Source: Patescibacteria group bacterium
GTDB lineage: Bacteria; Patescibacteriota; Minisyncoccia; Phycocordibacterales; UBA9973
DNA length: 64,000 nucleotides
Direction of reading: 5' to 3'
NCBI GenBank assembly: GCA_028868715.1
Contig: JAGWUB010000002.1
Span: 211,388 to 275,387, forward strand
Below the pieces are notes generated by a model. The model was not told where the DNA came from. It did not search any database and saw only the letters and a program-made list of their open reading frames with translations. Of the stretch, positions 1 to 59,283 are shown piece after piece (positions within the stretch are counted from its first letter, which is position 1; each line of letters starts with the position of its first letter). The translations under genes and the position numbers were made by a program.

Positions 1-64
1 TTAAAAAACTAGCCCCGATGAGGATGACGATAGCGATGAGAATTATAATTGTTGATTTTGACAT
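1..64 (-). CDS. N-terminus of a small membrane protein (partial, runs off window start)
   Basis: ATG at 64-62 on the minus strand gives MSKSTIIILIAIVILIGASFL..., a hydrophobic helix continuing past position 1. It is not in the ORF track because it is truncated. Confidence 0.2.
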   Translation of the reverse strand, partial: MSKSTIIILIAIVILIGASFL

Positions 65-78
65 ATATTTTTAAATTT

Positions 79-510
79 TTATTTAATAATAGCTACTTCT
101 TTAGACATAAAGTAGGTGGACAAAACAAATATTAAAACATAAAAGATCAGCCCGAGCGCACAGGTGGGCAAACCAAATATATACGCACCCAACCCTTGCT
201 GAAATAAAATTGGAATTTCTTTGAAAGTAAAGTAGCCAGCAAACAGCATGCCCAAGAAGGACACCATGCTGAGACCCAGTAAAGCCTTTCTCTTTTCTAT
301 TTTAGAAAATACTAACAACGAGCTAAAAATAGTAATGAGTAGAAACATTCCAAACCCGAAATAACACGCTGGGTAACCCAAGAAAAATGGGCAACCTTCA
401 TTAAAGGCGCACGTCGACGTGAAAAATTTTACCCCACTCAAATATCCTGAGAACAAAAGCCCCGCTATTGATAATATAAACACCGTAATGCTAATTTTAT
501 TTTTTGCCAT
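79..510 (-). CDS. polytopic membrane protein with conserved Cys residues (possible VKOR/DsbB-like thiol-disulfide oxidoreductase)
   Basis: 143 aa with 4-5 predicted TM helices. It has a Cys pair (TCAFNEGC) in the first loop plus CY and PTCAL motifs. It lies next to a rhodanese gene. The family assignment is tentative. Confidence 0.45.
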   Translation of the reverse strand: MAKNKISITVFILSIAGLLFSGYLSGVKFFTSTCAFNEGCPFFLGYPACYFGFGMFLLITIFSSLLVFSKIEKRKALLGLSMVSFLGMLFAGYFTFKEIPILFQQGLGAYIFGLPTCALGLIFYVLIFVLSTYFMSKEVAIIK

Positions 511-531
511 ATATACTATTATACCATTTTT

Positions 532-780
532 TTATCTCACGATATTTTTTGCCATATCATTTATCCCTCCCCCGTCAGCCACATTTGTAAAACCAGCCTT
601 TTCCAGCAAACCTTTGGCCATTGCAGATCTATTGCCAGTCTGGCAATACACAGTGATGACTTCATCTTTTTTTACATCTGGAAAAGATCCCTGCATCATA
701 TCAATGATATCGAAAAGCTTGGCGCCTTCTATGTGGCCATTGTCATATTCCTCTTTGGTGCGCACATCTAAAATTACCAT
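532..780 (-). CDS. rhodanese-domain sulfurtransferase
   Basis: 82 aa single rhodanese fold with the active-site loop VYCQTGNRS. Confidence 0.8.
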   Translation of the reverse strand: MVILDVRTKEEYDNGHIEGAKLFDIIDMMQGSFPDVKKDEVITVYCQTGNRSAMAKGLLEKAGFTNVADGGGINDMAKNIVR

Positions 781-812
781 AAATATATTTTTATTTTCCC
801 TAATAAAATTGA

Positions 813-1036
813 GTTAACCCCAAGTGCCATGACTAAAATAATAAAATGAATTACAATAATGGTCTTGAATTGGGGTCAACGTACCATATGCCGAACAAGA
901 TTAAATTTTATTACAACACTTCCCAGAAAACGTTAACCCCGATGTCTTGACCAGAACGATGATCTTCATCACAAAAATGGTCTTGAACCGGGGTTAACAC
1001 TTATTATGCCGAATAAGGTGAAATTTTATTACAACT
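813..1036. repeat. two tandem copies of a ~105-nt structured element (stem GTTAACCCC...GGGGTTAAC enclosing a conserved core)
   Basis: Unit 1 (813-918) and unit 2 (932-1036) are about 85% identical, including ACAAnAATGGTCTTGAA and ATGCCGAAnAAG...AAATTTTATTACAAC. The closing stem covaries between copies (CCCCAA/TTGGGG versus CCCCG/CGGGG). Confidence 0.6.
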
Positions 1037-1514
1037 ATAAACTCTCGGCGAGTTTGTCGAGCGATTGGTTCCAGCCCATGGTCGCCATCTCAGCCATCTC
1101 CTTTGGATGGCCCTCGTGCGTCAGGGTCAATTTGGTTTTGCCGTCTATTTCTTCAAATTCAAAAGTTACTTTCATCTCCTCTGGCCAAGTTCCTGGCATA
1201 CCCACCGCATTGGGAGAAATTATATTTCCATCTTTATCAGTAAAATGATCCATGGCCACTATCTTTTTCATTGGCACGATTTCTAAAAATGATCCGCCAC
1301 TCCAATAATCTTGCGCCGGCATATTTGGCCCAGCTGAGCCATGCATGCAGTAGAGATATTGCCCACCGATTTTAAAATCAATTTTAATAACTGGCGCCGT
1401 AAAATTTTTCGGCCCCCACCACTTCTGTATCCCCTCCACCGTAGTCCACGTCTCCCAAACCTTCCCCACCGGAGCATCAAACATTCTCGTAATTACTATA
1501 TCTTTTGTATCCAT
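1035..1514 (-). CDS. SRPBCC-superfamily protein (AHSA1/polyketide-cyclase-like START fold)
   Basis: 159 aa. The opening MDTKDIVITRMFDAPVGKVWETWT...WWGPKNF pattern is typical of Activator-of-Hsp90-ATPase-like SRPBCC proteins. Confidence 0.7.
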   Translation of the reverse strand: MDTKDIVITRMFDAPVGKVWETWTTVEGIQKWWGPKNFTAPVIKIDFKIGGQYLYCMHGSAGPNMPAQDYWSGGSFLEIVPMKKIVAMDHFTDKDGNIISPNAVGMPGTWPEEMKVTFEFEEIDGKTKLTLTHEGHPKEMAEMATMGWNQSLDKLAESL

Positions 1515-1533
1515 AAATTTATTTTAACATATT

Positions 1534-1758
1534 TTATTTCAATTGTTGAATTGCTCTTTGGTTGTCTTGTTCAATCAAATTTCTCGCATTCCTTGCCGCA
1601 TTAATATCCCCAAAGCCTCCATTCATCATATTGTTGTTACTACCCTGCCCGGTAGGGAAATTTGTAAACAACCCCGTCCTGACAATTATAAACGCAACAA
1701 TAGCCACTCCAATCAAAAGCATCAAAATCCCGATAAATCCTCTGTTGTGTTTTTTCAT
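1534..1758 (-). CDS. small single-pass membrane protein, hypothetical
   Basis: 74 aa with one N-terminal TM helix and a Gly/Asn-rich tail. Confidence 0.4.
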   Translation of the reverse strand: MKKHNRGFIGILMLLIGVAIVAFIIVRTGLFTNFPTGQGSNNNMMNGGFGDINAARNARNLIEQDNQRAIQQLK

Positions 1759-1776
1759 TTATAAATTATAACCTAT

Positions 1777-2130
1777 TTAATCTAGATGAACATGTATCTT
1801 TTTTTCTCGTATTTTTGATGCTTCTGCTAACGCTTTTGAGATTTCTTTCAAATATTTACTAACCATTTCATTTGGAATATGTATAGTATTGTAGCCATCT
1901 TTGGTAGACCAATAACCCCTATTCAAATCTTTTATAATTTGCTCAGAATTTGTAAGGTGGTGAACACCATCGACTTCTATATCAAGCTTTGCTTTTGGAA
2001 TTTCTATATCCACATATTTAAAACCGTCAAAGGCTTCCATTTCTACTTCCACTCCTAAATTTTCAAGAGCATTTTTTAAATCAATAGCTATTTTGGTAGG
2101 TTGTGGTTTTGGGTGTGTAATTTTTAACAT
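1777..2130 (-). CDS. hypothetical protein
   Basis: 117 aa ORF that packs tightly with its neighbours. No family recognised. Confidence 0.4.
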   Translation of the reverse strand: MLKITHPKPQPTKIAIDLKNALENLGVEVEMEAFDGFKYVDIEIPKAKLDIEVDGVHHLTNSEQIIKDLNRGYWSTKDGYNTIHIPNEMVSKYLKEISKALAEASKIREKKIHVHLD

Positions 2131-2162
2131 TATCTTATTTTACCTTAATTTAAGACTGGTGC

Positions 2163-2507
2163 CTATTTAGTATCCAAAAGGCACTCGCAGGGTTTGTTTT
2201 TGAGGATTATTTTTTGCTCTTTTATGGTATTTATAAACACGTTTTGGCTGGCCTTGCCACGGGCTAGTTTTTTATCTAGCGGGGTGTGGTGATTGTAGCC
2301 ACGCTTGGTAAATTCTTTGACCAAGGCTTGATGCCTGCCATAGAGCGCTCGCTCTTTCCCTACCCAACGCAAAGTCTCTGGATGGTGTGAATAACCACTC
2401 CGGCCTTTATGTTTGGTTAAAATATTCCAAAGACCATGTAGCTCGCGGTGCTCCGCGAGTAAATGTTTTCGGCATAGATGTTTTGGATGAATATCCCAGA
2501 CACGCAT
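2163..2507 (-). CDS. pyrimidine-dimer DNA glycosylase (T4 endonuclease V / DenV family)
   Basis: HLLAEHRELHGLWNIL aligns with T4 endoV HLMAEYRELPRVFGAV. Size (114 aa) and overall pattern fit the Pyr_excise family. Confidence 0.7.
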   Translation of the reverse strand: MRVWDIHPKHLCRKHLLAEHRELHGLWNILTKHKGRSGYSHHPETLRWVGKERALYGRHQALVKEFTKRGYNHHTPLDKKLARGKASQNVFINTIKEQKIILKNKPCECLLDTK

Positions 2508-2725
2508 TAGACTAATTTCTTTAGCTCTTCTTCGTATTTTTTCATGACTTGGAGGCCGGCGTCGGTTTGCGACATGCCGGACTTTACTTTTTCCTCCACT
2601 TCTTTGGCGATCTTTTGAAAAAGCTCCGGATTTTTTTCAATCATAGACACAAACATATCTATCTGTGCCTCCGGCACACCCTTTGTCCTAAGCATCTTTT
2701 TAAGTAAAAAATTTTGCATTCCCAT
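2507..2725 (-). CDS. small hypothetical protein
   Basis: 72 aa. Its stop overlaps the start of the downstream gene (ATGA-type coupling). Confidence 0.4.
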   Translation of the reverse strand: MGMQNFLLKKMLRTKGVPEAQIDMFVSMIEKNPELFQKIAKEVEEKVKSGMSQTDAGLQVMKKYEEELKKLV

Positions 2726-2761
2726 GGTGCCAGTATAACATAAATAGGTAAAACGTTTCTA

Positions 2762-3163
2762 TCAACGATACAGCGCCGAGGTTCTCTTGAGCTCCCTCCT
2801 GATAGCCTTGTGATTTGGTGCCACTTCGGCCACCAAGCTCCAAAAATTCACCGAATGATTAAATTCTTTTAAATGGCACAGCTCATGCACAATAATGTAG
2901 TCGGCAATGTGTGGGGGTAGAAATAAAATTTTGTAATTGAAATTTAAATTCCCGCCCTTGGAGCAGCTACCCCAACGAGTTTTAGTATCACGGATGGCTA
3001 CCCTGCTTATCTTGAAATTATAATGGGTATTTAGTTCTGTGATCCTTTGATGGACTAGGGCGCGAGCGGTTTCCTTGTGCTTTTTGTAATCCCATCTCGA
3101 AAATTTTTTCTTGCCAAGCAATTTTAAAATTTCATCTACTCGCAGAGGTTGGTTTCGTATCAT
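2762..3163 (-). CDS. YgjP-like metal-dependent hydrolase (M48/WLM-like, DUF45)
   Basis: HELCHL (HExxH) motif in a 133-aa protein with DUF45/YgjP-like architecture. Confidence 0.7.
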   Translation of the reverse strand: MIRNQPLRVDEILKLLGKKKFSRWDYKKHKETARALVHQRITELNTHYNFKISRVAIRDTKTRWGSCSKGGNLNFNYKILFLPPHIADYIIVHELCHLKEFNHSVNFWSLVAEVAPNHKAIRRELKRTSALYR

Positions 3164-3164
3164 A

Positions 3165-3389
3165 TTAATTTTCCACTATTAAAAGCTTGCTCGGATGTTT
3201 GTGACCGTTCACTATACGGACCTTGTTTTTAGGGACCTTAAAATATTCAGCCACCAACACTAAGATACGTGAATTCGCAAAATTTTTTTCAGCCTTTTCT
3301 TTGACCGAAACTTCAAAATGATCCTCGGATTTCTTTTTCCAAGACTCTTTTTTTGCTCCAGCGGTGACTTTGAGGTGAATGTAGCCCAT
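3165..3389 (-). CDS. DUF167 (YggU-like) protein
   Basis: 74 aa; [15 protein letters not shown]...VKEKAEKNFAN pattern of the YggU family. Confidence 0.6.
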   Translation of the reverse strand: MGYIHLKVTAGAKKESWKKKSEDHFEVSVKEKAEKNFANSRILVLVAEYFKVPKNKVRIVNGHKHPSKLLIVEN

Positions 3390-3877
3390 TATTTCAGATA
3401 ACTATCAAAATAAATGGCATGGCAAGTGTAGCCTCCTGGATTCTTTTGCAAATAATCCTGATGATAATCTTCGGCTAGATAAAACTTGCCAAGTGGCTCC
3501 AAGCTCGTGACCACTGGGTTCGGCCAGCGCTTTGACTTATTTACAATATCAATAAAATTTTCAGCTTCTTGTTTTTCTTCTTCGTTGCCATAAAAAATAG
3601 CTGAGCGGTAAGAAGTGCCTCGGTCATTTCCCTGCTGGTTTAGGGTTGTGGGATTGTGAATTTGAAAGAAAAAATCCAACAACTTTTTATATGAAGTCTT
3701 TTCGGTGTCGTATTCTATTTCCACTGCTTCGGCATGCCCTTCGTGGTTGTGATAAGTCGGATTTTCTACCTTGCCGCCAGTATAGCCGACGCTAGTGTTT
3801 ACTACCCCCGGCTGTTTTCGGATCAAGTCCTCCAAACCCCAAAAACATCCTCCCGCTAATACTATTTTTTTAATCAT
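3389..3877 (-). CDS. msrA: peptide methionine-S-sulfoxide reductase MsrA
   Basis: GGCFWG catalytic motif at the N-terminus. 162 aa with full-length MsrA pattern. Confidence 0.92.
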
Positions 3878-3889
3878 TCTTAAATTTAT

Positions 3890-4279
3890 TTACAAGAAAA
3901 ACAAATATATGCCGATGACGATAGCCACAAAACCATAAACGCCGAAGGCGGTTCGAAATTTTTTTACGAAATTCTGGTTTAATATCTCAGGCATAAAAAT
4001 GTAGGCCAAACCTTTCGCTAAAACCATCCAGACAAAGACGGTGACTAGGGTGCGCCATGTCCCATCCCAAACATTGTACTGCAGGAGGTATATCGACGAG
4101 AGGAACAGCAAAATCACCCCAGTCAAATACACAATGGCTGGATGATCAAAAAAGTCCTGAAGTAAATGTGGGATTGTCTTGCCCTTGATAATAAGAAACA
4201 AACCACTAACTACTAAATAGATACCTAGTATTTTCGCAACCAAAATTGTTATATCCATAAAATATACTCGCCCCGCCAA
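3890..4279 (-). CDS. 4-TM membrane protein, hypothetical
   Basis: 129 aa of hydrophobic helices. Confidence 0.5.
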   Translation of the reverse strand: MAGRVYFMDITILVAKILGIYLVVSGLFLIIKGKTIPHLLQDFFDHPAIVYLTGVILLFLSSIYLLQYNVWDGTWRTLVTVFVWMVLAKGLAYIFMPEILNQNFVKKFRTAFGVYGFVAIVIGIYLFFL

Positions 4280-4441
4280 CGGCGTGGGTTGGTTATTAAT
4301 AATATATTAATTATAACACAAACATTTTGCATAGTGGGGGTGTAAGAAATACTTGGACTAAACGTCAATAAACTATGTAATCCAATATTATCTCTTTGTC
4401 GAAAGGGATAGTTAGAATTATTAGTTAAATTAAAAATTAAT

Positions 4442-5206
4442 ATGAATAAAACAATAGGAATTATCATAGCGATTATCGTAATCATCGGTGGTGTGTATTT
4501 GTATACTCGTACCTCAAATAACACGAACTTATCCGAGACAAATACTGCAAGTACTACTCCAGAGAGTAGCCAAACAAATCAAGCTGCTGTGGCTCAAGGT
4601 CGAGCAGTTTTTTCGGTCACTGATGCGGCGACCAACATGAGCACTATCAGCGAGATAACGATGAAGATCAATAGTGTCGATGTCCACAGTGCCACCACGG
4701 GCTGGACGACTGTCTCTACCAATCCGCAGGTTTTCAATCTGCTTACCCTAAATGCTAAGAATCAGTCACAACTTTTGGCTGATGCAAACATAAGCGAGGG
4801 TACTTATGATCAAGTGCGTTTGATGGTGGATTCTATCACTGTCACTACTAAGGCTGGCGCAACCACCCAAGCCAAGCTTCCTTCTGGTGAATTAAAAATT
4901 AATACCAACCTAATAATAAAGGCTGGTGGCGCTACAAGCATTAATTTTGACTTCCTCGCAAGCAAATCTCTACACATAACTGGAAATGGAAAATACATTT
5001 TCGCTCCAGTTGTAAAGACAGAGTCAAGGAGTGATTCAAAGATAAATGTAGATGCAAATAATGTGGTTAAGGTTTCTGCTGGAAAAGTAGATGATACAAA
5101 TACTGTCGGCATGGATATCGATGGTAGTATCAAAAAGGATTTTCAAATTAAGAGCGATCAAAAATTAGAAATTGATACCAATAATGCTATCAAGCTAAAG
5201 CTTTAA
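4442..5206 (+). CDS. signal-anchored extracytoplasmic DUF4382-like protein
   Basis: N-terminal TM anchor, Thr/Ser-rich linker, then a beta-rich domain matching the DUF4382 pattern (MKINSVDVHS...GTYDQVRLMV...). Confidence 0.55.
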   Translation: MNKTIGIIIAIIVIIGGVYLYTRTSNNTNLSETNTASTTPESSQTNQAAVAQGRAVFSVTDAATNMSTISEITMKINSVDVHSATTGWTTVSTNPQVFNLLTLNAKNQSQLLADANISEGTYDQVRLMVDSITVTTKAGATTQAKLPSGELKINTNLIIKAGGATSINFDFLASKSLHITGNGKYIFAPVVKTESRSDSKINVDANNVVKVSAGKVDDTNTVGMDIDGSIKKDFQIKSDQKLEIDTNNAIKLKL

Positions 5207-5225
5207 TTTAAAATTCATTAAAAAA

Positions 5226-5250
5226 ACCTCGCTAGTGCGAGGTTTTTTTA
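5226..5250. terminator. bidirectional rho-independent terminator
   Basis: ACCTCGC-TAGT-GCGAGGT hairpin flanked by an A-run and a T-run, between convergent genes. Confidence 0.7.
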
Positions 5251-5262
5251 ATATTTTTTTAA

Positions 5263-6228
5263 CTATTTTGTGCCGCAATGTGCCTTGAGGGCAGCTAGGT
5301 CGGTGGCGGTCAGCGCTGTGTTTGTGCCTTGATTTAATTTATACATTATGGCTTTGGGGTCATCTACGTGCTCTAGGCCAAGCGCGTGCCCGAGCTCGTG
5401 CGCCAAGACTCGCACCAATTTATCGCGATTGCTAAATTCATAAATATCTATTTCTTTATTGATGCCATCGCTGACATATAGCCCTTCTTCAAACGTTTCC
5501 CCGCGCGAAACGTTGGTGGTGTTGTATTTATCGACAGAGAGGTTTAGGGTGTTGATCAGGCGATTGAGGGCGACGACTAACGCATTTATTTCATCCGCTT
5601 GGGCGTTTAGATTGTTTTGCAAAACTTGGATTTGCTTTGATTCGGCTACTAGCTCGAGGCGAGTGGCTTCTAGTTTATTAAATTCCGCTTGGGGTGCTCC
5701 GTTTCGCGCATTCCAATATTGCACTTGCGTCTCGTAAGCTTGTTGTCTTTGGTTAAAAGACGCCACTTGGGTATTGAAAGCAGTTTTATTGATGTCGTAT
5801 TGCGCTTTCAGAGAATCAAACTTAACTTTTAACATATCGTACGATGAGCGGTTGTCCTCTACGGTAATCCCGAGACTGCTGAGTTTGCTCGTCGCCTGCT
5901 GGCGATAGTCATAAATTAAATTTACTTTTAAAACATCGGCTCCGGTGTCAGCGGGAGTATAGGTAAAGAGTTGTTTGCCATAGGGCTTTTCCCAGATAGC
6001 TTCCGCGTCGGCAAGAGCGCTAAGAAAATAACTTTTAGAAATACCAAACTGGGTGTCAAAAGTTCCGAGATTGTATGGTATTGGTTCGGCGCAAGGCACT
6101 GGTGGATGAATCCGCGACTCTATCTTGCTAAGAAGTGGCGCAAACTGAGTGCTAAGTGGCGCCCGAAATTGATACACCGATGCCACGAGAACGAGTAACG
6201 GTATTAAAATTTTTAAAATATTTTTCAT
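5263..6228 (-). CDS. secreted zinc metalloprotease, matrixin/metzincin-like with coiled-coil region
   Basis: Signal peptide; long coiled-coil (Q/N-rich heptads); C-terminal HELGHALGLEH (HExxHxxGxxH) plus a downstream Met-turn-like MYK. Confidence 0.65.
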   Translation of the reverse strand: MKNILKILIPLLVLVASVYQFRAPLSTQFAPLLSKIESRIHPPVPCAEPIPYNLGTFDTQFGISKSYFLSALADAEAIWEKPYGKQLFTYTPADTGADVLKVNLIYDYRQQATSKLSSLGITVEDNRSSYDMLKVKFDSLKAQYDINKTAFNTQVASFNQRQQAYETQVQYWNARNGAPQAEFNKLEATRLELVAESKQIQVLQNNLNAQADEINALVVALNRLINTLNLSVDKYNTTNVSRGETFEEGLYVSDGINKEIDIYEFSNRDKLVRVLAHELGHALGLEHVDDPKAIMYKLNQGTNTALTATDLAALKAHCGTK

Positions 6229-15105: not shown

Positions 15106-15149
15106 AAGTTAAGGTAAGTATATACTAAGTTAGTTCCTTTTAAAAATTA

Positions 15150-15328
15150 AGAGAAGTGATTGGGGAAACTGGTTAGATTCCAGTACAGTGCCGCTACGGT
15201 AAGTCCCGATACGCCAATTGGCGAATCGAGGAACAAGTCCGAATACCAATCATTTTACTAATCCCGAGCAGGATCCTCTCTCATTTTTTTGAGAGACCAC
15301 AAATTCTGCCCGAGCAGAATTTTTTTTA
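15150..15328 (+). promoter_or_regulatory. cobalamin (B12) riboswitch with intrinsic terminator expression platform
   Basis: 15162-15205 GGGGAAACTGGTTAGATTCCAGTACAGTGCCGCTACGGTAAG matches the cobalamin aptamer core. There is a B12-box-like AGTCCGAATACCAATC (15237-15252). A TCTCTC/GAGAGA hairpin is followed by the terminator TTCTGCCCGAGCAGAA+T9 (15304-15328), ending 3 nt before the ATG at 15332. Confidence 0.75.
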
Positions 15329-32332: not shown

Positions 32333-32537
32333 CCTTTTTCATTTGGTCTACGACGCAATGACTAAGATGACCCTCCATAAGAGTGTCTTCAACATTTGAA
32401 AGACCTTGCTTGACCGCCGATGTTTGGGTGATGACATCAATGCAGTAAGTGCCACCATCTATCATTTTTTGAAGCCCACGAACTTGACCCTCAATTATTT
32501 TGAGGTGTCTGATTAATTTATCTTTATTGGTTTTCAT
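32274..32537 (-). CDS. csoR: CsoR/RcnR-family metal-sensing transcriptional repressor
   Basis: 87 aa; the CsoR Cu(I) ligand triad aligns as Cys (YCIDVIT), His and Cys (HLSHCV), with helical bundle pattern. Confidence 0.85.
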
Positions 32538-32548
32538 TCCAATAGTGT

Positions 32549-32566
32549 ATACCCCCTAGGGGGTAT
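32549..32566. promoter_or_regulatory. perfect 18-bp palindrome ATACCCCCTAGGGGGTAT, CsoR-type operator
   Basis: GC-tract palindrome 12 bp upstream of the csoR start. It closely resembles the B. subtilis CsoR operator (TACCCTACGGGGGTAT). Confidence 0.75.
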
Positions 32567-32599
32567 TGTCAACTTTTGGAAATTTAGGGTGTGGAAAAC

Positions 32600-32770
32600 T
32601 TATTTAATTTCTGGTTCTTGGTGAAATTTTTTTCCTAGATAGTACGGCCAGACTATAAGCGCTAGCACTCCCCTCCAAAATGAAAGACGAAGATAGCCGA
32701 TGGAAAAAAGCCAACCTATGGCCCACAGCACACCAAAAACATTATCGTGATTTATTATTATATTTGGCAT
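32600..32770 (-). CDS. unannotated 56-aa two-helix membrane mini-protein (paralog 1)
   Basis: Translated manually: MPNIIINHDNVFGVLWAIGWLFSIGYLRLSFWRGVLALIVWPYYLGKKFHQEPEIK. Below the ORF-track size cutoff. Confidence 0.5.
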   Translation of the reverse strand: MPNIIINHDNVFGVLWAIGWLFSIGYLRLSFWRGVLALIVWPYYLGKKFHQEPEIK

Positions 32771-32782
32771 AAAATTATTTTT

Positions 32783-32944
32783 TTAATGAATAATTGAAAA
32801 CGCGACCCCTAAAAAGTATGGCCAAACTATGATTGCTAGAACTCCCTTCCAGAAAGTTAGGTGTAGAAAGCCAATGGTAAAGAGCCAGGCCACAATCCAC
32901 GCCCCGCCTGTAAACATATTATTTTCTATTTTAATTTTGTTCAT
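32783..32944 (-). CDS. unannotated 53-aa two-helix membrane mini-protein (paralog 2)
   Basis: MNKIKIENNMFTGGAWIVAWLFTIGFLHLTFWKGVLAIIVWPYFLGVAFSIIH. About 60% identical to paralog 1 over the WxxxWLFxIGxLxLxFWxGVLAxIVWPYxLG core. Confidence 0.5.
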   Translation of the reverse strand: MNKIKIENNMFTGGAWIVAWLFTIGFLHLTFWKGVLAIIVWPYFLGVAFSIIH

Positions 32945-33043
32945 CTATTAATTATATCAAATATATTAAAAATTGACGAGCCAAAAGTGTGAAATATTAA
33001 TTGGGGATATTCGTCAGTATTTAAAGAGGGGTATAAAGAAGGT

Positions 33044-54640: not shown

Positions 54641-55037
54641 GGGGATGCAAGGCATAGACAGTAGGCCTCTTGTTATTGATGCATACCGAGCATGGACGTA
54701 ATCTCGTAAAAATTCGTCTAAATGTTAATTGCAAAATTAGCTTCTAAGGTGAAAGCTTCAGTTTCTCCATACTTCGGTATGAATGAATTCGCTTTCGCTC
54801 TAGCTTAACTTAGGTTCGGCTAGTGTCTCTCTTATAGACTTCCGATATATAAGATGGGGCAACATATTATCGGGATAGTTCCCTCGCCTGTTCCGACGAG
54901 AGAGCAAAACAAAGGAACTCGATTAAAAAATATTTGGCTCGCTTAAGAATTTTTTAATTAAAACCAAAAAGCGTGCTACGTATGTAGACTTCTTTACAAT
55001 AACCTTCTGCACGGGGATTCAATTTCCCCCATCTCCA
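54641..55037 (+). ncRNA. ssrA: tmRNA (SsrA), one-piece
   Basis: Starts GGGGATG... and ends with a tRNA-like T-arm GGGGA-TTCAATT-TCCCC plus acceptor CATCTCC-A. Acceptor pairing gives the G3-U70 alanine identity pair. Candidate tag frame ...GMNEFAFALA* ends TAA around 54829-54831. Lies 23 nt after smpB. Confidence 0.8.
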
Positions 55038-55079
55038 CTATTTATAGCCCAAAGGATAATTTTTTGATATATTTACATC

Positions 55080-56554: not shown

Positions 56555-56565
56555 TCAACAAAATA

Positions 56566-56595
56566 AAAAACCCCACACGGGGTTTTTTATTTTAC
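56566..56595. terminator. bidirectional rho-independent terminator
   Basis: AAAAAACCCCACACGGGGTTTTTTATTTT between the convergent rplT and LOG-like genes. Confidence 0.75.
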
Positions 56596-58989: not shown

Positions 58990-59011
58990 TGAATTTTATC
59001 ATATTTCCAAG

Positions 59012-59205
59012 AAAAAACCCCGCGCGGCGGGGGTACTTCTTAGGACTATCTCAGATATATTACCATAGCTAAAAGCTAAGTGGGTGCGAGACGCTTATAA
59101 CCAAGGCTATAATCGATCGACGCTCCCATAAATTGTTGTCTAGGTAATAACCGGAAATAACCCTACTAAAATTATACTACCTCCAAATTTTTCCGCAAGA
59201 TATTT
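59012..59205 (-). ncRNA. candidate structured 5' leader or small RNA with its own promoter and intrinsic terminator (upstream of the VanZ-like gene)
   Basis: On the minus strand: promoter TTGCGG-N16-TATAAT (about 59170-59200); ~155-nt transcript ending in CCCCCGCCGCGCGGGG+T6 (59012-59036), 25 nt before the VanZ-like start. Only a 17-codon ORF inside, with no SD. Confidence 0.35.
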
Positions 59206-59251
59206 TCTAAAAAAACACAAATTTCAAATAAAAACAAGTTTGACAAAATAC

Positions 59252-59278
59252 AAAAGCCCCCACTCGGGGGCTTTTTAA
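59252..59278. terminator. bidirectional terminator after ndk
   Basis: AAAAGCCCCCACTCGGGGGCTTTTT. Confidence 0.7.
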
Positions 59279-59283
59279 CTTAA

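Follow-up and report, generated by a model that had tools for sequence, protein, structure and literature searches.

Tandem pairs of paralogous small RNA (sRNA) genes occur in bacteria, and examples include OmrA/OmrB and PrrF1/PrrF2. Other described elements that resemble the locus reported here are intrinsic terminators, repetitive extragenic palindromes (REPs) and bacterial interspersed mosaic elements (BIMEs), miniature inverted-repeat transposable elements (MITEs) and the attC sites of integrons. A pair of hairpin units that is partly like each of these was identified in a 64,000-nucleotide (nt) stretch of a Patescibacteria metagenome-assembled genome (contig JAGWUB010000002.1), and this whole stretch is referred to here as the window. 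The pair lies between an SRPBCC-family gene and a rhodanese gene and consists of two tandem units (A and B), each with a conserved 30-nt motif followed by a long imperfect hairpin. A homologous unit with compensated changes in its stem is present in another genus, in a related locus (L031) of Candidatus Paceibacterota. With its hairpin kept in this way, the module is probably a functional RNA signal placed where genes meet. The pair is a new, small, lineage-specific element of a familiar kind, the intergenic RNA hairpin module.

Comparison with described elements

The module resembles an intrinsic terminator in that a sense-strand hairpin with a GC core (CCCC/GGGG) lies just 3' of a stop codon, and in unit A and L031 a U-run follows the stem and an A-rich 5' flank pairs with this run. 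It differs from a terminator in the length of the hairpin (64-68 nt), the internal loop, the variable apex and the 30-nt motif ahead of it. A standard terminator has a stable GC-containing stem with a short loop of 3-8 nt and, on the transcribed strand, a U-run that starts 0-2 nt past the stem. The basal stem of 11-12 base pairs (bp) found here instead closes off 46-47 nt, in which an internal loop and the inner helix lie. The tandem sRNA genes OmrA/OmrB and PrrF1/PrrF2 resemble the module as diverged copies in tandem, in which a middle that varies lies between a conserved 5' segment and a conserved terminator-like stem. However, L031 contains a single copy, any promoter or target of the module is putative and no chaperone context is known in Patescibacteria.

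REP/BIME and MITE-like elements are similar to the module as imperfect palindromes located right after stop codons between co-directional genes, with differences in presence and absence and a possible stabilisation of the upstream message. REPs are shorter and occur in tens to hundreds of near-identical copies, whereas the module has two copies in 64 kilobases (kb) that are 71% identical. The module also lacks a target-site duplication and includes a conserved non-palindromic 30-nt motif. A preliminary description of this DNA had considered that the copies might prove to be a dispersed MITE, and neither a target-site duplication nor dispersed copies were found in the window and the related loci. 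The homology extends well past the GTTAACCCC/GGGGTTAAC arms, the bases flanking the arms and those flanking the AT repeats are not direct repeats, and GTTAAC, a palindrome that belongs to the arms themselves, is the only direct repeat.

Integron attC sites are also imperfect hairpins of approximately 60-70 nt with variable centres and GTT/AAC-containing ends, and they lie between small cassette-like genes of varying order. The ends of the module do not fit the RYYYAAC...GTTRRRY arrangement; its arms, (T/C)GTTRAC... and ...GTTAAC(G/T), mismatch both cores, and its basal stem of 11-12 bp is continuous, without an unpaired central spacer. There are two sites only, the neighbouring gaps of 12-35 nt contain none, no attC array was found and no integrase family was called among the neighbouring genes. 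Type III antitoxin repeats (ToxI-like) were ruled out by the 71% identity and 118-nt period of the repeats and by the downstream genes, which encode rhodanese and a VKOR-like protein. The template repeat and variable repeat of a diversity-generating retroelement were ruled out by mismatches that involve all four bases in both directions and by the intergenic position of both copies.

No family of Rfam 15 reached its gathering threshold in the gap (positions 781-1034) when the whole window was scanned, nor with the L031 homologue, in agreement with the preliminary description, which had recognized no known family. The best scores in the region were at chance level (sR2, 19 bits against a threshold of 42; MIR4378, 17 bits against 90). 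DNA-pattern scans with patterns that leave out the 30-nt motif gave only chance matches in viral contigs. Metagenome contigs gave no match in one case and four GC-rich matches in coding sequence in the other, and genome contigs, a collection that does not include the source genome of the window, gave one Bacteroidales hairpin that has the loop motif in common. BLAST against phages and plasmids gave no match. A hairpin of Bacteroidales UBA1769 (L010:3987-4033), ACAACCCCACT-TCAAGACCATTCTTGC-AGTGGGGTTGT, lies just after a gene end and has ACCCC..TTCAAGACCATT..GGGGT in common with the window hairpins, probably by coincidence.

Structure of the tandem pair

The gap between the SRPBCC and rhodanese genes, which are encoded on the same strand, spans positions 781-1034 of the minus strand (254 nt). 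The tandem pair fills it from one gene to the other, as originally stated, with 12-15 nt ahead of the rhodanese ATG. The gap sequence is identical in two independent Logan assemblies, and the source organism occurs in SRR32006837 and SRR32006838. Unit A (917-1034, minus strand; 118 nt) begins directly 3' of the SRPBCC stop codon TAG (1035-1037) and scores 127 bits with a covariance model of the module. Unit B (793-916, minus strand) is the more diverged copy and scores 117 bits.

The tandem structured element is real, with two direct copies that each contain an inverted repeat, but its period is 118 nt and not approximately 105 nt as first estimated. The copies align without gaps over 93 nt (73% identity, offset 118 nt), and the whole units are identical at 79 of 111 positions (71%). 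Their divergence is too great for Tandem Repeats Finder to call the repeat. Mismatches between the units are only mildly clustered (P=0.025-0.14), and a 1-nt indel within the hairpin separates their reading frames. The pattern GTTAACCCC-N30-60-GGGGTYAAC occurs only at this site in the 64-kb window, with 0 expected in shuffles. BLAST, nhmmer and the covariance model detected no further copies in the window, and no extra copy beyond the homologues described below was found in the 134 kb searched (the window and approximately 70 kb of related loci).

On the minus (gene-sense) strand, each unit is composed of a 36-nt 5' segment, a hairpin of 67-68 nt and a U-rich tail. The 5' segment is the best-conserved part, with 27 of 36 positions identical between the copies. 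It contains the 30-nt motif, which sequence comparison places at 1005-1034 in unit A (TTGTAATAAAA-N6-CTT-ATTCGGCATA, minus strand) and at 887-916 in unit B (TTGTAATAAAA-N6-CTT-GTTCGGCATA, minus strand), and which is also kept in L031 and in two further related loci, L004 and L006. The RNA consensus of the motif, UUGUAAUAAAA-N6-CUN-RUUCGRCAUA, is conserved and single-stranded. Conserved sequence of approximately 36 nt on one side and approximately 15 nt on the other lies outside the inverted repeat, which therefore does not enclose the unit as had been proposed.

Hairpin A (932-998, minus strand; 67 nt) has the basal stem GUUAACCCCGGU/AUCGGGGUUAAC, an inner helix GACCA/UGGUC and an apex GAUGA/UCAUC. 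Its inverted repeat (932-941/989-998) is 10 nt long and 100% complementary, and the fragment that contains it (923-1040) has a folding energy of -34.6 kcal/mol (z -4.3). Hairpin B (813-880, minus strand; 68 nt) has the basal stem GUUGACCCCAA/UUGGGGUUAAC with a minus-strand G·U pair and a weak AU-rich apex. Its inverted repeat (813-823/870-880) is 11 nt long and 91% complementary, and the corresponding fragment (805-925) has a folding energy of -27.1 kcal/mol (z -1.8). The hairpin interiors are identical at 31 of 44 positions (70%) and the apical parts at 7 of 16, rather than at approximately 85% as reported for the loops before.

A U-run, GUUUUCU (925-931, minus strand), lies directly 3' of hairpin A and pairs back to AAGU 5' of the stem, and the arrangement in L031 is alike (GUUUUUAU); each run starts with one G followed by 4-5 U. 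Unit B has neither the stem extension nor a U-run directly 3' of the hairpin, and the run in its tail (UCAAUUUUAUUA) begins 4 nt past the stem. The tail sequence AAUUUUAUUA (801-810, minus strand) is a perfect complement of UAAUAAAAUU, a part of the 30-nt motif that each unit contains (904-913 and 1022-1031), and this pairing closes the whole array in the minimum-energy fold. L031 has an 8-nt counterpart (AUAUAAUU/AAUUAUAU). The 10-nt complementarity of motif and tail could close the whole module, but it consists of A and T only and could also be due to chance.

Three stem positions differ between hairpins A and B. A double change (A-U versus G-C) is found at one of them, and the other two are one-sided changes that stay paired solely as G·U on the minus strand, so the earlier statement that the stems differ on both arms holds for a single position. 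A two-copy shuffling control was uninformative (119/500), and four random substitutions spared all 11 pairs on at least one of the strands in 1.4-18% of simulated trials. Compensation between the two window copies alone is consequently little proof of selected pairing.

Homologues in related genomes

Homologues were found by BLAST of the gap against fetched related loci. This search for further copies, which had been suggested in the preliminary description, identified a full unit in L031 and short forms in L004 and L006. The L031 locus was reached through the orthologue of a 243-amino acid (aa) protein encoded in the window genome. Its unit (2163-2271), which includes the long hairpin, is flanked by a 150-aa gene and a DUF6496 gene and is 70% identical to the window gap over 108 nt (E=3e-11). 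Its identity is 67% to unit A and 59% to unit B. Unit A is about as close to the L031 unit as to unit B, which indicates an old tandem duplication with unit A as the more conservative copy. Orthologues of the 243-aa protein from the three lineages are 57-59% identical, and a non-coding identity of 67% beside orthologous proteins of approximately 58% identity points to selection. A partial copy of the motif is also present at L031:1639-1668, 3' of the L031 rhodanese gene.

L004 and L006 are from closely related Patescibacteria and contain the motif TTGTAATAAAA-N6-CTN-GTTCGACATA directly 3' of the stop codon of a YgjP-like gene. The motif is located 79 nt ahead of a 245-aa gene, which is the orthologue (59% identity) of the 243-aa gene that lies three genes downstream of the rhodanese gene in the window genome. 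In this short form the long hairpin is replaced by a 20-nt palindrome centred on GTTAAC (TTTAATAGTTAACTATTAAA). The distance from the preceding stop codon to the module is 0-2 nt in the window and in L004 and L006, and 28 nt in L031.

The preliminary description had placed the element next to the rhodanese/membrane-thiol operon. A link to this operon is not borne out by the relatives, where the element lies between other genes and the rhodanese orthologues lack it. Orthologues with 63-71% identity have upstream gaps of 0-56 nt without the element. A conserved leader of the rhodanese gene was ruled out on the same ground, with gaps of this size also free of the element across orthologues of 59-71% identity (76-86 aa). 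The homologues are equal in length (76-86 aa), which rules out an N-terminal extension of the rhodanese into the gap and shows that the short gene start is genuine. A 3' element of the SRPBCC gene was ruled out as well, since in the closest relative (L011, 82% identity) the next gene follows after 6 nt and L013 is free of the element.

Covariation and strand

The alignment used for covariation comprises the three full units (A, B and L031), two of which are paralogues in one genome. Their consensus fold, as predicted by RNAalifold, has a 12-bp basal stem, followed by an internal loop, a 4-5-bp inner helix and a variable apex. The inner helix of the window units has its counterpart in GCCAG/CUGGU of L031. 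Standard pairs occupy 35 of the 36 basal-stem cells. Stem position 6 is C-G in units A and B and U-A in L031, an independent double change, and position 10 is G-C in unit A, A-U in unit B and G-C in L031, whereas positions 4 and 11 show wobble changes (G·U). Unit A and L031 share the stem extension AAGU/GUUU, for which L004/L006 have AAUA/UAUU, and this gives two more double changes. Paired cells amount to 91%, compared with 25-48% with slid partners, and 10 of 500 shuffles reach that level.

The selection on RNA pairing that had been proposed from the two window copies thus draws its support from the L031 copy, the short forms and the shuffles, within the thin statistics that three copies allow. 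Template switching in replication can also yield seemingly compensatory hairpin changes without selection (PMC8794818).

The hairpin shows a preference for the gene-sense strand. Six G·U wobble cells favour this strand and one favours the antisense strand. The L031 unit folds with -33.5 kcal/mol (z -5.1) in the sense and -24.1 kcal/mol (z -3.7) in the antisense direction, and unit B has z-scores of -1.8 and -0.3, respectively. The structure is real and conserved and, in this sample of three sequences of which two are paralogous, most consistent with a sense-strand RNA.

Genomic setting and promoter context

The SRPBCC/AHSA1-family gene upstream of the module (1035-1514, minus strand) has its own leaderless-type promoter, tgtTAAAAT-N6-ATG. 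The rhodanese gene downstream (532-780, minus strand) encodes 82 aa and is followed by a gene for a VKOR-like membrane protein (79-510, minus strand), which has TATAAT 7 nt ahead of its ATG. The median intergenic spacing in the window is 21 nt, the gaps near the element are 12-35 nt long, and several of the other long gaps contain tmRNA or tRNA genes or a cobalamin riboswitch, which makes a co-directional gap of 254 nt unusual here.

A TAnn[AT]T box exactly 6 nt ahead of the start codon was found for 19 of 75 crude gene calls, against a background of approximately 3 per offset; examples lie at 1515-1526, 1759-1770 and 2131-2142. A G at -14 (the TGn extension) is present in 15 of these 19 promoters, and Shine-Dalgarno-like pentamers are essentially absent in the window. 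The genome appears to use leaderless, extended -10 promoters. Orthologues of the 243-aa gene in L004, L006, L026-L028 and L031 have the layout TATAAT-N6-ATG (TATGAT in L028), and these include the 245-aa gene downstream of the short form in L004 and L006. The genes downstream of the full modules, rhodanese in the window and DUF6496 in L031, have no local promoter signature of the type TAnn[AT]T-N6-ATG. As the rhodanese gene is without a promoter of the local type, its message probably begins upstream and must cross the hairpins.

Several other features of the window were recorded. A cobalamin riboswitch aptamer (RF00174) is located at 15114-15268 of the plus strand in a gap of 226 nt (42 bits against a threshold of 31.5). 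Just downstream of it is a 19-nt inverted repeat (15389-15407/15484-15502) that is 95% complementary, with arms 76 nt apart. A transfer-messenger RNA (tmRNA) gene (RF00023) at 54641-55040 of the plus strand scores 124 bits and was missed by ARAGORN. Two long gaps, 32333-33043 (711 nt, divergent genes) and 58990-59283 (294 nt, co-directional), contain no Rfam family and no tRNA. The small accessory genes near 1-4300 of the window (rhodanese, YgjP-like, TspO/MBR, 243-aa protein, PF1765-like, DUF1905 and GIY-YIG) recur in relatives. In L001, L003, L004, L006, L028 and L031 their order and the inserts between them vary, as in a shuffled accessory neighbourhood.

Proposed role

At slightly less than even confidence, the element is read as a lineage-specific (Paceibacterota) sense-strand non-coding module that would act in cis at gene boundaries and is duplicated in this genome. 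Each module would present the 30-nt motif, then an imperfect hairpin of 64-68 nt, then a U-rich tail that pairs back to A-rich bases 5' of the stem. The hairpin might be terminator-like, attenuator-like or stabilising, and would end or protect the upstream SRPBCC message; the module would also give the rhodanese-VKOR message, which lies downstream, a structured 5' leader. Its location right after stop codons, the U-runs of unit A and L031, the pairing A-rich flank and the promoter context together suggest such a cis-acting punctuation or leader element. The module would be transcribed under this reading, with a presumed effect on termination, read-through or stability. The label of cis-regulatory RNA or sRNA given in the preliminary description fits as far as a structured element selected for pairing is concerned, and both functional terms stay putative on the sequence evidence.

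Several observations weigh against a cis-acting punctuation element. The local intrinsic terminators at 5204-5265 and 56560-56593 are compact and bidirectional, with an A-run, a GC stem, a 4-nt loop and a long T-run, and the module hairpins are unlike them; a terminator scan called none at 781-1034. Unit B is without the adjacent U-run and stem extension, the conserved 30-nt motif is not accounted for by a plain terminator, and no alternative (antiterminator) fold was found. The flanking genes vary among genomes with no specific regulatory logic evident, and the element is absent at the corresponding locus of L026-L028, which carry the closest 243-aa orthologues (64-70% identity). The -10-like hexamers of the motif (TAAAAT, CATAAT) are without the G at -14 or the T at -12 that are typical locally. 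The four double changes were matched or exceeded in 39-43 of 500 shuffles, with only three full copies and correspondingly thin covariation statistics.

A more specific form of cis action is a protein- or ligand-controlled attenuator specific to Paceibacterota, in which the 30-nt motif would be the sensor-binding site and the tandem arrangement, like that of riboswitches, would gate the promoter-less rhodanese-VKOR genes (thiol/sulfur stress). This more specific form is regarded as improbable.

Alternative explanations

The units may instead be two paralogous genes for trans-acting sRNAs, an explanation that is considered unlikely but deserves attention. A -10 box in the motif (TAAAAT; TATAAT in L031) would direct a start approximately 7 nt downstream, RUUCGRCAUA would be the 5' seed, and the hairpin with its U-run would be the terminator of an RNA of approximately 90 nt. 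The layout fits, with a conserved 5' segment, a hairpin conserved in structure but variable in sequence, and then a U-run, and the element does not depend on which genes flank it. The hexamer also matches the local -10 consensus TAnn[AT]T and is spoiled in L004/L006 (TAAAAC/TAAAAG), where the long hairpin is missing too. It lacks, however, the TGn extension found in 15 of 19 local promoters, and promoter assignment within the motif is ambiguous, as the spacer of TTGTAA-N20-CATAWT is too long and TAAAAT is without TGn. No convincing complementary target was found at start codons in the window and related loci, a start within the motif would leave the complementarity of motif and tail without a role, and the U-run of unit B is poor.

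The module could also be a small non-autonomous palindromic element, or a recombination-driven palindrome, that lodges at gene boundaries. The hairpin would have been inserted at, or deleted between, two direct repeats of GTTAAC; the tandem arrangement would have arisen as a by-product, and effects on RNA, if any, would be incidental. The patchy distribution among relatives with differing flanking genes is consistent with this, as is the long/short polymorphism located exactly at GTTAAC (TTTAATAGTTAACTATTAAA in L006 versus GTTRAY...RTTAAC in the window and L031). Inverted repeats are present at the module ends (10 nt in the window and 8 nt in L031), and template switching can mimic compensation (PMC8794818). 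There is, however, no target-site duplication beside either the hairpin module or the terminal repeats, and no further copy in the 64-kb window or the approximately 70 kb of related loci. The matches from pattern scans of viral, genome and metagenome contigs were at chance level, and BLAST of phage and plasmid records gave none. The copies are old (59-71% identical) and not recent insertions, and the genes adjoining the element were not assigned to any transposase or integrase family. Such an origin is judged rather improbable.

A functionless relic, in which slippage would have duplicated in tandem a piece of intergenic DNA or the 3' part of a gene since lost (e.g., the DoxX gene that precedes rhodanese in L003) that contains a palindrome by chance, is held to be a poor explanation. 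It would suit the presence of only two copies in the window, the mild clustering of their mismatches and the weak compensatory evidence from these two copies alone. It is at odds with the cross-genus conservation (E=3e-11) where orthologous proteins are approximately 58% identical, with the compensated stem changes and with a very compact genome whose median gap is 21 nt. A 13-nt identity, TAGTCATGGCACT, between the 3' interior of hairpin B (window 820-832) and the 3' end of DoxX_2 in L003 (2958-2977), a gene whose sequence overlaps the start of rhodanese there, at a similar distance to the rhodanese start, was noted in support of a DoxX origin; it is judged to be chance, although not fully explained. 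The 13-mer occurs in the diverged unit B and in neither unit A nor L031, and the conceptual translations gave no Pfam match to the DoxX profile and no BLASTP alignment to L003 DoxX, so that a DoxX pseudogene relic was ruled out.

That the units encode small peptides is very improbable, since none of the six frames checked keeps its start, stop and length across units A, B and L031. The candidates were two minus-strand open reading frames (814-879, 21 aa; 911-1000, 29 aa) that share LTP(I/V)QDH(Y/F)C, a 15-aa leaderless micro-frame in unit B, where TAAAAT-N6-TTG resembles the leaderless gene-start signature, and the plus-strand MPNK(I/V)KFYYN. The LTP frame is 29, 21 and 10 aa long in units A, B and L031, respectively, the 15-aa frame lacks a start codon both in unit A and in L031, and the MPNK frame is interrupted by a stop at its fourth codon in L004 and in one unit runs 80 codons antisense through SRPBCC. 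The 1-nt indel in the hairpin shifts the frames between the units, and gene callers predicted no gene here. Short conserved translated stretches appear in several frames because the DNA itself is conserved.

Significance for Patescibacteria

The genomes of Patescibacteria (candidate phyla radiation, CPR) are tiny and tightly packed, and gene regulation in these organisms is almost unknown. A quarter of the genes in the window have a -10 box exactly 6 nt ahead of the start codon, and Shine-Dalgarno sites are absent; much of the regulation may therefore rest on the punctuation of transcription and on how the few long leaders fold as RNA. If the module is a mobile palindrome instead of a cis-acting element, it would help to explain the shuffling of the neighbouring small accessory genes (among them rhodanese, YgjP-like and TspO). 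If it is an attenuator, it would be among the first regulatory RNAs defined in ultra-small, largely leaderless bacteria without Shine-Dalgarno sites. An unannotated hairpin module that is kept across genera with compensation is a concrete candidate for a signal that takes part in such regulation, and the covariance model R1 is usable to search for it throughout the phylum.

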